A program made the translations under genes and the position numbers. Source: a virus. From it: 64,000 nt of DNA. The stretch lies in the IMG/VR virus record IMGVR_UViG_3300042905_004067; one strand, given 5' to 3'. Under the pieces are notes generated by a model that saw only the letters and a program-made list of their open reading frames with translations, did no database searches and was not told the DNA's origin. Below are positions 52,050 through 63,457 of this stretch, piece after piece (positions within the stretch are counted from its first letter, which is position 1; every line of letters begins with the position of its first letter).

Positions 52050-52136
52050 TTTTTTTCCTTTATGGGATCTACCCATTGCTAATGTTTAAGACGGGAACTA
52101 CCCGCCACGAACATATGTAATTATAACAAATAAAGT

Positions 52137-55138: not shown

Positions 55139-55156
55139 AAACCCGCATTTAGCGGG
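55132..55156 (-). terminator. Terminator after the DksA/TraR gene
   Basis: CCCGC-TAAAT-GCGGG followed by TTTTTATTTT on the minus strand. Confidence 0.65.
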
Positions 55157-55358
55157 CTCTATTAGAAACTCGTTGTGCTCGTCGCAGATTTTCTTTATCT
55201 GCTGAATTTACCATTACCAACTCTGGCGCAGTTTTATGATACCAATCCATAAACCCAACATATGGTTTTGCATCAGAACACTTTATGCACTTTGTTGTAT
55301 AAGGGAGTGCTTCTAGTCTGGCTTTTGGAATTTCACAACCACATGTTTGACAGTTCAT
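55149..55358 (-). CDS. DksA/TraR C4 zinc-finger protein
   Basis: CQTCGCEIPKARLEALP.TTKCIKC; start at 55358 (ATGA overlap, GGAG SD). Confidence 0.85.
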   Translation of the reverse strand: MNCQTCGCEIPKARLEALPYTTKCIKCSDAKPYVGFMDWYHKTAPELVMVNSADKENLRRAQRVSNRAR

Positions 55359-55546
55359 TGTTCTTTCTCCACGCATTTTACTAGTTTACGCTGTATTGCA
55401 TAAGTGCCATCAAGATGCATTTTACGTTCTGCAATCGTTTTCTTTCCTAGTGCGCGTTTAGCAACTTGAAATACTATTTGTTTGCGAAAAGCACGACCTT
55501 GTGCTTCTGCTCCCATATCAATAACATCCCATTTACGTTTAGCCAT
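55355..55546 (-). CDS. Small basic hypothetical protein
   Basis: ORF directly after a consensus promoter. Confidence 0.6.
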   Translation of the reverse strand: MAKRKWDVIDMGAEAQGRAFRKQIVFQVAKRALGKKTIAERKMHLDGTYAIQRKLVKCVEKEQ

Positions 55547-55588: not shown

Positions 55589-55880
55589 TCCGGTTTTTCA
55601 GATGCGGGAAAACCGGGAAACCCCACTGCTTCAAGCAGCCATTGCCAGTTCGTTGGCAATTATATTTGCAACTGTTTATTTACGACACTTGTTACCCGTG
55701 TCGGGTATCTCCTTCTTTCATACTCTGCTCCAGTCGATGCCATTCAGCCCCTTAAATGCCCCGCTGCAACGAGGACTTGTTTCGCCATCCCTAAAGTTTG
55801 CAGAGGCTTTAGGTTAGGCTAATGGAGCCGAGGGGATTCGAACCCCTGTGCTGTTAGCATTTCTGTCCGAGATCAACAAT
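55589..55880 (-). ncRNA. ssrA: Circularly permuted (two-piece) tmRNA
   Basis: Acceptor piece ~55880-55823 ends AGGGG-TTCGAAT-CCCCT-CGGCTCCA. Coding piece starts GGGGCTGAATGGCATCGAC at 55751. G3:U70 pair, pk1, tag ORF ANIIANELAMAA* (55669-55631) and a further pseudoknot. Confidence 0.92.
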
Positions 55881-55886
55881 ACCAAA

Positions 55887-56816: not shown

Positions 56817-57374
56817 TTATCGAACCACAAATGAATTAATTTTAAAACAATAGTTATTCATTATAATACCAGAAGCAGTTCCAACATTAATACTGCGAAC
56901 AGAACCATATTGTGGAATATAAAGAATATCATCACACATACTTAGAACGTTTTCGGGAACCCCAATTTGTTCCTGACCAAAAATCATCACATAATGAATA
57001 TTTGGATCAAATTGATATTCGTTTACGTCTTGTGCTTCAGGAACATTGTCAATTCCAAGTAATTTAACTTTTTCTTCATGGGAGGAAATAATTTCTTTAA
57101 TGTAGGAATTGAGGTTGTCAATAGTTTTAACATGACGGAAGTTGGTATAGTGATGGGTGCCAACGGTTCCCCGCCTGTCGTATTTTTTTTGTCCATAGAT
57201 CGCTACTTCTTTTGCCAAAAACGCATTAGCGTTTCGAATAACTGTGGCAATATTAAAATCATTGCCAATATTACAGCAGATAACTGTATAGTTAAAACGC
57301 TTATGGTTAAGATCTGCTCTAATAGCGTCATCGGACCAATATTTATAGTGATCAATTAGATTTCTTGTGTCCAT
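56817..57374 (-). CDS. SpoU/TrmH-family (SPOUT) RNA 2'-O-methyltransferase
   Basis: N...DFNIATVIRNANAF, IFGQEQIGV, IPQYGSVRSINVGTASGI. Confidence 0.9.
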   Translation of the reverse strand: MDTRNLIDHYKYWSDDAIRADLNHKRFNYTVICCNIGNDFNIATVIRNANAFLAKEVAIYGQKKYDRRGTVGTHHYTNFRHVKTIDNLNSYIKEIISSHEEKVKLLGIDNVPEAQDVNEYQFDPNIHYVMIFGQEQIGVPENVLSMCDDILYIPQYGSVRSINVGTASGIIMNNYCFKINSFVVR

Positions 57375-57804
57375 TTTCAACTAATTCAAAATCATGAGAA
57401 ATTCTTGACTCTTCGCACAAAGTCATAAAGTGCCAACCCTTTTTGCACAATGCACCAGGTCGACCAGTTATTTGACAAATTCCATAAGAATCGTCTTCTG
57501 CTTTGTCTATTAATGTTTGAATATTCTTAAATAGAATTTCATTGTTTGTCTGAACCGTGTAATAGAATCTTAGTCCTCCAAATTTTTCTTTTATTTGAAG
57601 AACCTCAAATACTGTATCTGAGTTTTTTTGCTTTTCTTCTGTCAAATATTGCTCAACAGTAGAACAAACTTTGTCTAGCAATCCATACCAACCATTGGGA
57701 AGTTCATTGTATGTTTGTTCAGACATGGTTTCAAAAACCAGTGGATATTTTTCAATGAGAATATCAATAGGTTCTTTAACCTCTTTAATTTCATTTTCAT
57801 TCAT
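57352..57804 (-). CDS. Conserved phage hypothetical protein
   Basis: GW..L...QIKEKFGGLRFY...C...G..G motif. Confidence 0.7.
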   Translation of the reverse strand: MNENEIKEVKEPIDILIEKYPLVFETMSEQTYNELPNGWYGLLDKVCSTVEQYLTEEKQKNSDTVFEVLQIKEKFGGLRFYYTVQTNNEILFKNIQTLIDKAEDDSYGICQITGRPGALCKKGWHFMTLCEESRISHDFELVENGHKKSN

Positions 57805-59380: not shown

Positions 59381-59560
59381 TTATGATTGAATTTTAATGT
59401 ACTGAATATAGGCTTCCCAAGGATCGTCTTTATATACAGATTGCCCTGTTACTCCTGCTATCTTTTGCCCGTTCTCGTCTAATTGAAAGACCGTGGCTCC
59501 AGATGGTCCAGTAATTGCCCATATAACGGGATATACTAATATTTTTTCTTGAAATCCCAT
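59381..59560 (-). CDS. 59-aa hypothetical late protein (not in ORF track)
   Basis: MGFQEKILVYPVIWAITGPSGATVFQLDENGQKIAGVTGQSVYKDDPWEAYIQYIKIQS; ATAAATA 5 nt upstream. Confidence 0.65.
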   Translation of the reverse strand: MGFQEKILVYPVIWAITGPSGATVFQLDENGQKIAGVTGQSVYKDDPWEAYIQYIKIQS

Positions 59561-59573
59561 AATACTATTTATT

Positions 59574-59673
59574 AAAAAGAAAGAGGGGGATTACCCGAAT
59601 CCCCCCCTCTGACGGTCTAAAGGTAGCGAAGTTCCTTTTTCGCACGAACAGCGTAGTTCGCGAGCCCGTCTGT
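59574..59673 (-). ncRNA. Candidate ~100-nt structured late small RNA with intrinsic terminator
   Basis: ATAAATA at 59685-59679; three-way junction at 59670-59611; GC hairpin plus U-tail at 59610-59574; no ORF. Confidence 0.65.
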
Positions 59674-59703
59674 ACTTTTATTTATGAATATACATATTTT
59701 ACT

Positions 59704-62031
59704 ATGCCAATATGGATTCATAATTATTCACAAGTTCGAGATAACATAGATGTTTTTCGTTATGACACAGAGCCTGCTGTATTTCCTCAATATGTTGCGG
59801 CAAATCCTATAGCCTACAACCCAAACCTATTTACAAATCAAGAAAGTATTACTGTAAATGGAGAGCAAATACCAATTACTGTTGACTTTTCTGGTTGTAG
59901 GGTCGGACAAAAAAAATATGGTGATGGTGGCTCGGTTTGGTGTGGAGATGCAAATCAAGACGGAAGTTTTGAACCAAATGAAGGATTTATAGCATGTAAA
60001 GAGTCTACTAATGCAGTTTTTCCATTTTGTAATGCTTTTTGGGCATATGCTAAAGCAGGAGATCAGGCTTCATGCTCTCTTAATAACATATCTATTTCAG
60101 AACGAATTGCACTTTACAAAAATAGTGGAACAATAAACCCACCATATACACCTCATCAACCCTGCGAATCTTTTTTAGCAAATTCTTGTGTGTTTGATTC
60201 TTATTGGGCAGATAATCGTGGATATAATCCACAACCGTTCAAAAAAATAGATCCGAGAATATCAACAAATGGAAAATATTGGAATAATACAAATTTATGG
60301 TTTAGTGGTAGCTGGTGGGGCGACGTTTTGGTAGAAAATGATGGTCCAAAATACGGTGAACCTGACGGGTATGAATATGCAATAACTGTAGGGCATCCAA
60401 TTACTACCTCACCATGCAGCACAACACTTACTTTTAGTTACTTTGATAAAGAATTAAACGAAATACAGTATAGAGAATTTGAATGTCCATGTAATGCTTG
60501 GGGCAATCCCCCTAACTGCATTAGTTTACAAGAAGACTATCATAGACTTTGGGTAATGAAACCAGATCAAGAACCAATTCCAGATCATATAAAAAGATAT
60601 AAGGTACTACAAGGACCAATTAGAAACAATCATCCAACTTACGGATTTCATGAAAATTATACTATAACAAAAGTAATTCATAAATTAGAAAATGGCATTT
60701 CAGTTGGGATCGCTGATAGATCTAAACCATTTACATTTGGTGTTGATCCAGCACTAATCGGTCTTGGTTTAAATTATAATGGAAACGAGCAACTATATTT
60801 TCAAGGACAAGGAGAGGACGGTGGTTCAGTATTTACTGTAACTCCTGAAGGTGAAACAATTTATGTAGGAAGACACGAAAACACACATGGAACTAAATTT
60901 GGTATATCAAACAGAGATACTATTGATGCATCTAGTTGTTCCACGCCCGATGATGTGTTTTTAATAGCAGGAGATGAATTGGTATTAAATACAAGATGTG
61001 CTTTAGACATCTATCACCCAAATGAAATTTCTGAAGAAAGCACAACAGATATAAAATTAAATCTTGGCAATCTTAATAATTACCTGTCATATACGAATGA
61101 TATTCTGGGAACAATTGAAAAACCAAAAATTAAAACTTATGTGTTTCCTGAATTTATTGTAAACCCTGATGTAAATATAGAAAATATTTCAGATGTAAAT
61201 AAAAAATATCCACTAAAAGAAGTTCCGTATCTTTCTAGAGAATCTAAAAATACATTTTTTGAAAATTCAAACAACATTATTTTTGGTTCTAAAAAAATGT
61301 TACAAGCATCGGAATTAAACGAACTTCAAGAAAAATTTTATAAAAACCAATCATTATTTGTTGAATATGTAAAAAATTGGATTACTTATTCAAAAATTTA
61401 TGGTGTTGATTCTTTAGGATTTACAAGAACTGGAAATTCAAGTATAAATCCTTTTGGGTTTGATCTTAATAAAATCATACCACTCAATATTGATATGGTA
61501 AAAATAAATAAAACAGCACAAACCGAATATGTTATTACCATGAATGCTGGTTGGTATTTGTTAAATTCAAATTTAACGTTGTTAAGCGCCGGCGAAGGAC
61601 TCGTTCAATATTTTGGGAGATATGGAAATAATGATTTTATTCATTTAACAGAGAACCAATCAATAACTATAAACTTGAACAATATAACTTCTTTTCAGAC
61701 AAATTTAACAACTGTAAATATTAAACAAAATAATATAATAAATTGTACAAATTACGAAGAATTAAAAGACAATACAAATGGAATTCTTCAAGTATCTCCA
61801 TGCGGTGCTCAAAGAAATTTATTGTTTTTTAAAGAATTAAAAAATGCAACATATACTTCACAAATAACATTTAACGAACCCCCATCAATTCTATCACCAC
61901 TACCACCACTTCCATTTTATGGTTATTTAGAGAAAAATCTAGGAAGTAATAACTTATTGTTGTATACTAAAACAACAGGACAGGGATTGTCATTCTATTT
62001 TGCTAACGATGTCCCTATCGAATTTACTTAA
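59704..62031 (+). CDS. Fusion-like protein: degenerate trypsin-like domain plus DUF4815-N-like domain
   Basis: YAITVGH and GEDGGSVF; C-terminal FGSKKMLQASELNELQ...CG..R...FYF.N paralogous to the 35004 ORF. Confidence 0.55.
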   Translation: MPIWIHNYSQVRDNIDVFRYDTEPAVFPQYVAANPIAYNPNLFTNQESITVNGEQIPITVDFSGCRVGQKKYGDGGSVWCGDANQDGSFEPNEGFIACKESTNAVFPFCNAFWAYAKAGDQASCSLNNISISERIALYKNSGTINPPYTPHQPCESFLANSCVFDSYWADNRGYNPQPFKKIDPRISTNGKYWNNTNLWFSGSWWGDVLVENDGPKYGEPDGYEYAITVGHPITTSPCSTTLTFSYFDKELNEIQYREFECPCNAWGNPPNCISLQEDYHRLWVMKPDQEPIPDHIKRYKVLQGPIRNNHPTYGFHENYTITKVIHKLENGISVGIADRSKPFTFGVDPALIGLGLNYNGNEQLYFQGQGEDGGSVFTVTPEGETIYVGRHENTHGTKFGISNRDTIDASSCSTPDDVFLIAGDELVLNTRCALDIYHPNEISEESTTDIKLNLGNLNNYLSYTNDILGTIEKPKIKTYVFPEFIVNPDVNIENISDVNKKYPLKEVPYLSRESKNTFFENSNNIIFGSKKMLQASELNELQEKFYKNQSLFVEYVKNWITYSKIYGVDSLGFTRTGNSSINPFGFDLNKIIPLNIDMVKINKTAQTEYVITMNAGWYLLNSNLTLLSAGEGLVQYFGRYGNNDFIHLTENQSITINLNNITSFQTNLTTVNIKQNNIINCTNYEELKDNTNGILQVSPCGAQRNLLFFKELKNATYTSQITFNEPPSILSPLPPLPFYGYLEKNLGSNNLLLYTKTTGQGLSFYFANDVPIEFT

Positions 62032-62151
62032 TTCAATTTTGAGTTGTTCAATTTCTTTTTGAAGTCTAAAAACAAGATCATCCCCTCTGTTTTCATAGAG
62101 GGGATGATTCTTTAATGGTGATTCTTCAGTCTTGGAGGAATTGTTTTCCAT
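61990..62151 (-). CDS. Small hypothetical coiled-coil protein
   Basis: Likely start MENNSSK at 62151. Confidence 0.4.
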   Translation of the reverse strand: MENNSSKTEESPLKNHPLYENRGDDLVFRLQKEIEQLKIELSKFDRDIVSKIE

Positions 62152-62347
62152 GACCCTGCTCATTAAGTTGAGAAATACTTCTTTCCTTTGCTTCCTCAAA
62201 TATTTTATTATCTGCTTCCGTCCAACCTGTCATCCATTCGTGTCCTTGCATTGACCGAATAGTGTATGGATTCTCGGATCGATGCTTTCCTGAATAACGA
62301 GCCTTAAAGCCCTCATCAAAACTATTTCCGGCATTGTACTCACTCAT
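62126..62347 (-). CDS. Ribosome modulation factor (RMF)-like protein
   Basis: FDEGFKA...G.....NPY.......W..GW.EA pattern of RMF. Confidence 0.65.
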   Translation of the reverse strand: MSEYNAGNSFDEGFKARYSGKHRSENPYTIRSMQGHEWMTGWTEADNKIFEEAKERSISQLNEQGHGKQFLQD

Positions 62348-62466
62348 TTTTTAGATTCCTTTTTCTTAATTTTTTTATTGAAAATACGATCCCAGTTGTC
62401 AGACCATTTTTTATAGTCTACTGGTCTATATCTATCGCCTTTTCCAGCACCGTGTTTACCACCCAC
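62344..62466 (-). CDS. 40-aa basic hypothetical protein (GTG start, not in ORF track)
   Basis: MGGKHGAGKGDRYRPVDYKKWSDNWDRIFNKK...; GKG...R......NWD.IF small phage protein pattern; overlaps both neighbours. Confidence 0.6.
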   Translation of the reverse strand: MGGKHGAGKGDRYRPVDYKKWSDNWDRIFNKKIKKKESKK

Positions 62467-63457
62467 GATTAAAACTCACTTCTTCTCTATTTCCAGAGAA
62501 TGATATGTTTGCATTTAAGAACTCTAATGTATTTGAAATAAATTCAGTCATTTTAAGCAAACTACTAAATTGATGTAGAAACCCTTTGTAGTATACTTTG
62601 AATACGCCAACTGTTTCTAAAACATCACACTTATTTATGATGAGATAATCACAACCAGAAAGTTGCATTGATTCAATCAACTTATCAAGATTTAACCAAT
62701 TTACTAGTCTCTTACGGCCGGTTGTGGAACCGTATTCTTGGCCAAGTTCAATGATTCGATTTAGTGTTTCATCCTCCCATAAAGTTTCAGGGAACAGTGG
62801 ATCTACACCACTTTTCGTATCGTAGATTTTAGCAACACCAATACTACGACCAATGTACTTTGGAGGAATACCAAGAGAACATGCTCCGTATGGTAAAGTA
62901 GTACTACTCGTCACAAATGGATAGTTTCCATGATCAATATCAAGCCACACACTTTGTGCTCCTTCACATAAAACTGCACCAGAAAGATGTCCATCCCAGA
63001 TATACTGAGCATCTAGAACATCTTTTGCTTGTGTACCACAACGAAGCATCTTATCGGCATAGCATGGAGCAATTCCTTGTCCTGTAGTTCCAAACTTCTT
63101 TTTTAATTCTTTCATGTCTCGTTCAATATGCTCATCTGTGATGATATGAGCATGAGGAGAAACTTTTACAAGAGAGACATCAAAACCATTTTGCTCCAAG
63201 TAAGAAATTTCTTGTAAAAACTTATTTACATGAAGAACACATCCAGGACCAATAATTGATTTTTTACCTTTAAAAATTCCACAAGGAACACTGTGTGTTT
63301 TATACTTTTTGTCTTTGATGTAAACGGTATGTCCCGCATTTGGACCACCATTCCATCGACAAACATAATCGTATTCGTGCGCGATTGCATTAGAAATTTT
63401 TCCTTTGCCTTCGTCGCCCCATGCGAGTCCATAAATTACGTCTGCATAATCAATCAT
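62456..63457 (-). CDS. purA: Adenylosuccinate synthetase (short form)
   Basis: WGDEGKG, GGPNAGHT, GTTGQGI.P.Y.DK, EGAQ, G.YPFVTSS, EYGSTTGRKR, NKCD. Confidence 0.93.
   Translation of the reverse strand: MIDYADVIYGLAWGDEGKGKISNAIAHEYDYVCRWNGGPNAGHTVYIKDKKYKTHSVPCGIFKGKKSIIGPGCVLHVNKFLQEISYLEQNGFDVSLVKVSPHAHIITDEHIERDMKELKKKFGTTGQGIAPCYADKMLRCGTQAKDVLDAQYIWDGHLSGAVLCEGAQSVWLDIDHGNYPFVTSSTTLPYGACSLGIPPKYIGRSIGVAKIYDTKSGVDPLFPETLWEDETLNRIIELGQEYGSTTGRKRLVNWLNLDKLIESMQLSGCDYLIINKCDVLETVGVFKVYYKGFLHQFSSLLKMTEFISNTLEFLNANISFSGNREEVSFNRGW

Follow-up and report, generated by a model that had tools for sequence, protein, structure and literature searches.

The window analysed in this study is a stretch of 64,000 nt from the virus record IMGVR_UViG_3300042905_004067, which belongs to a phage genome of 88.5 kb that is T4-like as judged from its Gp23 capsid gene (E 4e-144). 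On the minus strand of this window, a unit of about 100 nt displays the outward signs of a gene for a small RNA (sRNA), and the question raised by this locus is what such an RNA is and on what it would act. Our analyses suggest that it constitutes an inverted and shortened copy of the part of 23S rRNA domain IV that joins the two halves of the ribosome, whose transcript could pair with the rRNA itself.

The features described in a previous sequence-only reading of this locus were all present when the minus strand was read again, namely an ATAAATA motif, the stems P1, P2 and P3, an intrinsic terminator and a second ATAAATA ahead of the next open reading frame (ORF), each found as described. They are given below with their positions in the window; helix numbers of the rRNA other than that of helix/loop 70 are presumably those of the standard numbering.

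59679..59686, minus strand: promoter-like motif CATAAATA, 8 nt ahead of P1 and of the type of T4 late promoters
59685-59679, minus strand: ATAAATA within the promoter-like motif, as read from the sequence
59574..59673, minus strand: predicted sRNA transcript of ~100 nt, its 5' end placed from the promoter motif and its 3' end from the terminator
59666..59670, minus strand: 5' strand of P1, GACGG, the partner of 59611-59615
59611..59615, minus strand: 3' strand of P1, CCGUC, which at the same time complements 23S helix 69 on its 3' strand
59642..59662, minus strand: P2 hairpin in its short form, 59662-59656 pairing with 59649-59643
59655-59642, minus strand: 3' half of P2, antisense to 23S ~1963-1977
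59619..59638, minus strand: P3 hairpin, in which a stem of 5 bp closes the 10-nt loop AACUUCGCUA, AAAGG (59638-59634) pairing with CCUUU (59623-59619)
59610..59637, minus strand: 28-nt stretch complementary to 23S ~1917-1944, that is, to the helix 69 3' strand and the helix-70 hairpin
59574..59610, minus strand: intrinsic terminator, a 13-bp GC-rich hairpin and a U-run, from sequence and folding
59381..59572, minus strand: next transcription unit, outside the RNA, with ATAAATA (59572-59566) and a 59-aa ORF

A promoter and a terminator on the same strand of a non-coding unit, as expected of a stand-alone sRNA, were both found here, the promoter as a motif match. Among 28 distinct homologues, 21 carry a TAAATA or TATATA motif 4-9 nt upstream of the first stem, and in 25 a run of four or more U comes after a hairpin (dG -9.7 to -25.8) whose stem takes no fewer than eight different sequences across the set; the predicted transcribed strand is fixed by these terminators and promoter-like motifs. 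The promoter had been called late, and the motif is indeed present and conserved in position, but across the whole window it shows no enrichment (25 found vs 33.6 expected), so that its lateness is read from its likeness to the T4 consensus and its conserved position. A 34-aa ORF (59617-59721) overlaps the unit; this ORF is not coding, since the indels among homologues are not multiples of three. That the AACUACGC motif might be coding, or a tmRNA tag, was likewise rejected, its frame being broken by indels and the motif occurring nowhere else in the window.

The predicted minimum free energy (MFE) of the 100-nt RNA is -39.1 kcal/mol, compared with -28.7±3.1 kcal/mol for dinucleotide shuffles, all 200 of which it beats (z -3.3), while the opposite strand of the unit folds with z -2.6. 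The fold proposed previously (-37.7 kcal/mol) lies 1.4 kcal/mol above the MFE fold of the window RNA, in which a competing GCGAA/UUCGC helix stands in place of P3. The P3 loop of the window copy is partly sequestered by this helix, with a predicted unpaired probability of ~0.3 for UUCGC; folding leaves the loop open in most forms of the RNA.

Support for the structure was sought across relatives with a covariance model constructed from nine long forms, which found all the other forms; the resulting model-based alignment was used instead of a MAFFT alignment of all forms, which misplaced the 5' strand of P1. In the model-based alignment, 90.8% of the cells are paired vs 37-47% with the partners slid, eight pairs show changes in both partners (two in P1 and six in P2) and the covariation score lies above all 500 shuffles, although these pairing and covariation figures lean towards the structure because the alignment was fitted to the model. 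The double changes in P1 replace G-C by A-U across the family (14 GC and 10 AU at one pair), and P2 of the longer forms is a 15-pair helix with six pairs altered on both sides. P3 is invariant in the family, which makes covariation impossible for this stem, and no covariation was found inside single subfamilies, whose sequences are too similar. The predicted three-way junction is real at the family level, with the P2 of the window being a remodelled short version. The covariance model R1, built from long-form relatives, matches the window at 59604-59670 (41.8 bits, E 6e-7).

The unit belongs to a genuine gene family. In IMG/VR, pattern scans turned up about 30 distinct homologues in contigs of uncultured T4-like phages, and a metagenome scan about 11 more, after filtering out the true LSU genes (of A1926 lineages) that its pattern, with a Y at the variable base, also caught. 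The family comprises the short form of the window, a long form with the 15-pair P2, a form with an extra hairpin and a form with a 5' extension. Its RNA core is almost constant, while the adjoining 775-aa protein is only 33-65% identical among the same contigs. PHROGs and Pfam searches with the flanking ORFs returned nothing for the 59-, 125-, 150- and 775-aa proteins, and the 59-aa ORF, lacking any family match, is present only beside short-form relatives of the sRNA.

Searches of Rfam 15 over the window identified tRNAs and a permuted tmRNA elsewhere and nothing on the RNA. Even at an E-value limit of 10, the highest-scoring match was sraA, which was at chance level (28.4 bits vs 56 needed) and covered the terminator on the opposite strand, and no family covers the RNA at 11 homologous loci. 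GenBank phage genomes yielded no match to the window RNA or to one long form. The proposal that this is an unannotated sRNA of the phage that stands alone, equipped with a promoter-like motif and a terminator of its own, folded as a three-way junction and unmatched in Rfam, is therefore upheld, and the only known family that enters the picture does so unexpectedly, as the opposite strand of LSU rRNA. Searched by BLAST against GenBank phage records, a second long form matched annotated 23S genes only, on the opposite strand. Paenibacillus phage Pd_22F, considered as a second example, was discarded since its record holds a complete 23S+5S operon and the match is to the 23S gene. The complete 23S and 5S rRNA genes of this record (MZ092003.1, 79588-86388; 2940 and 92 bits) are overlaid with small 'hypothetical protein' calls and are probably host DNA.

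What the sequence-only reading missed is that the RNA is antisense to 23S helices 69-70 and to the stretch that follows helix 71. The reverse complement of the window copy is identical to the best 23S sequence at 41 of 46 positions, covering E. coli ~1917-1977 and skipping the 1945-1961 hairpin, which we take to be helix 71. Against the E. coli 23S sequence itself, the best match of each member falls on the minus strand of 1927-1944 (18 nt, one mismatch), reaching 1914-1944 in some members and being accompanied in some by a second collinear match at 1963-1979. Gapped local alignments score 46-76 in the antisense orientation vs 20±2.5 for shuffles (maximum 33), whereas the sense orientation remains at background (~20). 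When the 88.5-kb phage genome was compared with 16S, 23S and 5S rRNA, this locus alone was returned (28 nt, 92.9%, E 5e-4), and 26 of the 28 bases of the stretch 59610-59637 pair with 23S rRNA of the Planctomycetota type. A model made from the phage RNAs alone in turn finds the antisense strand of 23S, with 27.8 bits for a planctomycete and 24.1 bits for E. coli. The predicted duplex energy is -83.8 kcal/mol vs -55.6±2.7 kcal/mol for shuffles, and the best site across the whole 23S rRNA is always this one; a conserved target complement beyond chance, as required of a trans-acting base-pairing sRNA, was thus found.

The complementarity is arranged in two blocks, one opposite E. coli ~1914-1944 (helix 69 3' strand and the whole helix-70 hairpin) and the other opposite ~1962-1977, which in longer relatives runs collinearly to ~2008. 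The 1945-1961 hairpin between them has been removed in all forms and replaced by an A-rich linker or an unrelated hairpin. Constraint is unevenly distributed along the RNA: the helix-70 complement, an 18-nt core (59637-59620), is complementary at 18/18 bases in nearly all members, the 1962-1978 block at 11-16/17 and the helix-69 part, which co-varies with the 5' strand of P1, at 8-11/15. Opposite 1925-1926, the family retains two mismatches. The essentially invariant P3 hairpin (18 nt) exactly complements the helix-70 hairpin of Planctomycetota-type 23S rRNA, which carries G1938, and its 10-nt loop complements the 10-nt loop of that hairpin in G1938-type 23S, giving the loop-to-loop match known from CopA and RNA I. 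The sole substitutions in the helix-70 loop complement are two independent changes of C to U opposite 1938, which still allow pairing with G or A.

These two variants were seen at L180:6894-6964 and in L332, and each would pair with either G1938 or A1938 rRNA. An LSU rRNA gene or pseudogene in the sense orientation does not account for the locus, the sense score being at background, the expression signals lying on the antisense strand, and only 60-95 nt being related, with helix 71 removed. A box C/D guide RNA was also rejected, since the window RNA contains neither a C box (RUGAUGA) nor a D box (CUGA).

The relation to helix 70 also bears on the twin GAACUWCGCU motif that had been pointed out in both arms. 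This motif occurs exactly twice in the 64 kb, where 0.07 occurrences are expected, but it is not a family-wide trait, its first copy being split by 4-16 nt or absent in other members. The apical region of P2 (59656-59662 in the window; long forms such as L044:240-337) contains (A)GCGAA, the bases of the 23S helix-70 loop, which are complementary to the UUCGC(U) of the P3 loop (59624-59630). This internal complement may represent an intramolecular kissing contact or a built-in mimic of the target, and may explain the twin motif.

The single mismatch with E. coli lies opposite A1938, where the phage RNA needs a G. Queried against one genome per species, the G1938 18-mer gave at least 120 matches, with at least 70 Planctomycetota among the 80 titles listed, in unspecified order, and the usable matches among those listed were all true 23S genes. 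In 151 Planctomycetota genomes, about three-fifths of the sites found carry G at 1938. Planctomycete 23S rRNA also fits the phage RNA at 1918 and 1967, where the latter differs from E. coli, and the best-scoring targets for every sRNA type were 23S genes of Phycisphaerae or Planctomycetaceae. Three longer relatives extend the match (reverse complement vs best 23S, E. coli numbering) to 64/75 identical positions over 1915-2008 (L044), 70/80 over 1916-1995 (L029) and 59/63 over 1914-1995 (L050). Within the variable 1976-1990 block, different sRNA types mirror different lineage variants.

These matches indicate that the ancestor of the sRNA was an inverted piece of a 23S rRNA gene of the Planctomycetota type. 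All forms have in common a derived U opposite U1926. This speaks for one capture, after which the sRNA tracked the rRNA, with repeated gene conversion as a possible alternative. The lineage-matching bases suggest selection for pairing and, through the rRNA signature only, a Planctomycetota host for these uncultured T4-like phages. The ribosome modulation factor RMF was not found in five planctomycete genomes, so that the gene context of the sRNA does not confirm such a host. Many LSU genes at metagenome loci (L267, L271, L274-L276 and others) carry A at the equivalent of U1926, and the conserved U of the phage RNAs would pair with it.

The region of the ribosome concerned is functionally exposed. 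Helix/loop 70 is single-stranded and is cut by MazF-mt3 and MazF-mt6 in the 50S subunit, not in the 70S ribosome, and a mutation in it abolishes subunit association (PMC5408214); decay of E. coli 23S rRNA starts with RNase E cleavage after residue 1942 (PMC4931109). Since the target is needed for subunit joining and is an RNase E entry and MazF cut site, an RNA covering it could switch off, protect or mark ribosomes. We favour, with a probability of roughly 0.55, the pairing of a trans-acting sRNA with the 23S rRNA of the host in the helix 70 region. The P3 loop would kiss the helix-70 loop on the free 50S subunit or on 23S rRNA still under assembly, after which the pairing would extend over the 3' strand of helix 69 and, past an extruded helix 71, into 1962-1977, leaving the paired sRNA in occupation of a stretch of the subunit interface. 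The outcome could be that 50S subunits are kept out of 70S ribosomes or that the ribonuclease entry site is covered; RNase III-type directed cleavage of the rRNA for nucleotide salvage might also result. The RMF-like ribosome hibernation gene present in the same phage inclines us towards occupation or shielding of free 50S; tRNAs, the tmRNA and genes for a SpoU methylase, DksA/TraR and PurA likewise lie near the sRNA, and these neighbours weakly suggest ribosome management, again favouring occupation or shielding.

Several considerations weigh against pairing. In the predicted structure, a large share of the complementary sequence lies within P1 and P2 and the RNA must unfold in order to pair in full, and the target is itself buried in mature 70S ribosomes. 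Furthermore, if the promoter is truly late, the blocking of ribosomes at that stage looks counter-productive, and the invariance of P3 could equally reflect a protein-binding site.

This last point belongs to the first alternative, in which a structured RNA would act through a protein, as decoy, scaffold or enzyme cofactor, and its complementarity to rRNA would be a mere trace of an inverted rDNA origin. The compact conserved fold with covarying P1 and P2, an invariant hairpin of the sort that protein-binding sites often are, the apical GCGAA of P2, whose possible pairing with the P3 loop suggests a closed tertiary fold, and the proximity of an RNA-handling gene (the SpoU methylase) all agree with this explanation. 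A relic would drift, however, and the complement is instead exact, specific to a lineage (G1938) and tracks rRNA variants, with the sole substitutions seen preserving pairing; no partner protein is conserved beside the sRNA gene either. We therefore regard action through a protein as unlikely, and nothing points to the two more specific functions that had been suggested, a two-site protein decoy and a virion or packaging RNA.

It is more doubtful still that the RNA is a conventional trans-acting regulator of an mRNA, for example of the leader of the gp32-like SSB gene, contacted through the P3 loop or the 5' end. The complementarity to the gp32 leader hinted at previously does exist, as the site GTAGTTCCCGTCT (52089-52101) complements the 5' region of the sRNA where none is expected by chance, and the conserved loop of the SSB leader holds AGUUCC, complementary to the GGAACU of P3. 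This pairing is lost in relatives, though: on contigs with both genes (L189 with L003, L205 with L006) the leader loop changes from U to G uncompensated by the sRNA, the long-form sRNAs are without the AGACGG 5' end, and the pairing amounts to 7+6 nt vs 26-30 nt for 23S rRNA. The leader of this SSB gene (52049-51138, minus strand) is of interest in its own right. Its hairpin at 52089-52106 has a stem that covaries over 80 loci (L184-L263), with variants such as CCAAGG/CCUUGG, CCCGGG/CCCGGG and GCAGG/CCUGC, and an almost constant loop (G/U)AGUU closed by GG-CC, and it is an unannotated candidate translational operator.

We consider it very improbable that the locus works as DNA or is a neutral relic, whether as captured rDNA or as a site that serves an rDNA-specific homing endonuclease as target or decoy. 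It is collinear with rDNA over 60-95 nt and overlaps what we take to be the classical I-CeuI recognition region, with an I-CeuI-type site at ~1915-1940. By contrast, the promoter-like and terminator signals have been preserved on a single strand, compensatory changes maintain stems of the RNA that are absent from rRNA, helix 71 has gone from all forms, no endonuclease gene is linked, and the core remains almost constant across phages in which the neighbouring 775-aa protein has diverged to the extent given above. Finally, a cis-acting leader or riboswitch controlling the downstream 59-aa ORF by transcription termination is scarcely credible despite the typical riboswitch anatomy of three-way junction, terminator and ORF, as the core stays unchanged while the terminator stems behind it are of at least eight unrelated sequences, which makes a conserved antiterminator pairing impossible, the 59-aa ORF is preceded by a promoter-like motif of its own and most members lack it downstream, where the genes differ, and no Rfam riboswitch matches.

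The favoured pairing with 23S rRNA has partial parallels among known systems. CopA, which acts on CopT in plasmid R1, and RNA I, which acts on RNA II in ColE1, are antisense RNAs working by loop-loop kissing. Like the phage sRNA, they combine a hairpin loop that exactly complements the loop of the target with complementary flanks, a dedicated promoter and an intrinsic terminator; they are, however, encoded in cis opposite their targets and act on an mRNA or a primer, whereas the phage sRNA is encoded in trans and its apparent target is an rRNA. Trans-acting base-pairing sRNAs of phages and bacteria resemble it in size, in being stand-alone genes, in their terminator hairpin and in a conserved complementary stretch. 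The phage sRNA differs from them in the class of its target (rRNA, not mRNA), in a complement of 26-30 nt plus a second block, far beyond seed length, and in being derived from the target gene itself.

Complementarity to LSU rRNA is also found outside phages. Synthetic antisense oligomers aimed at 23S rRNA have reportedly been reviewed; these are man-made molecules complementary to the LSU rRNA. Natural antisense rRNA transcripts of Leishmania, which one report links to rRNA fragmentation, are also complementary to LSU rRNA but are made from the rDNA locus of the same cell (PMC3504711). Both kinds of antisense molecule affect translation or the integrity of the rRNA. In contrast to both, the virus carries a dedicated and remodelled gene. 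The rRNA mimics, such as ribosomal-protein leaders and the Rfam 23S-methyl motif, are, like the phage sRNA, short RNAs related to a piece of rRNA; they imitate the sense strand to bind rRNA-binding proteins, whereas the phage sRNA corresponds to the opposite strand.

Phage takeover of translation is known to proceed via proteins, tRNAs and tmRNA, while no description of a phage RNA antisense to or otherwise aimed at rRNA was found in a literature search of incomplete coverage. We put at about even the chances of a wider proposition, namely that Planctomycetota phages encode an RNA dedicated to binding host 23S rRNA at the helix 69-70 interface, and that this RNA is kept matched to the rRNA of the host lineage and controls whether 50S subunits join 30S subunits, are shielded or are cut. 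If true, host takeover would include a layer in which RNA acts directly on the ribosome, and hosts could be predicted with the matching bases as a marker. The family adds a clear ancestry, an inverted collinear rDNA fragment with helix 71 excised, and lineage-specific matching bases that provide a testable host assignment, to Planctomycetota.

Some further features of the surrounding genome were recorded, all on the minus strand of the window: an RMF-like ribosome modulation factor (62126-62347, E 3e-7), the SpoU-family RNA methylase (56817-57380, E 1e-22), a DksA/TraR zinc finger protein (55149-55376), PurA (62456-63457) and the permuted, two-piece tmRNA gene (55631-55883; 73 bits vs the Rfam gathering score of 47). 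One relative, L052, carries both a permuted tmRNA and the anti-23S sRNA. At homologous loci, as at 59561-59573 of the window, the downstream genes begin 8-12 nt past a TAAATA- or TACATA-like motif without a Shine-Dalgarno sequence, and their mRNAs would be leaderless or nearly so.
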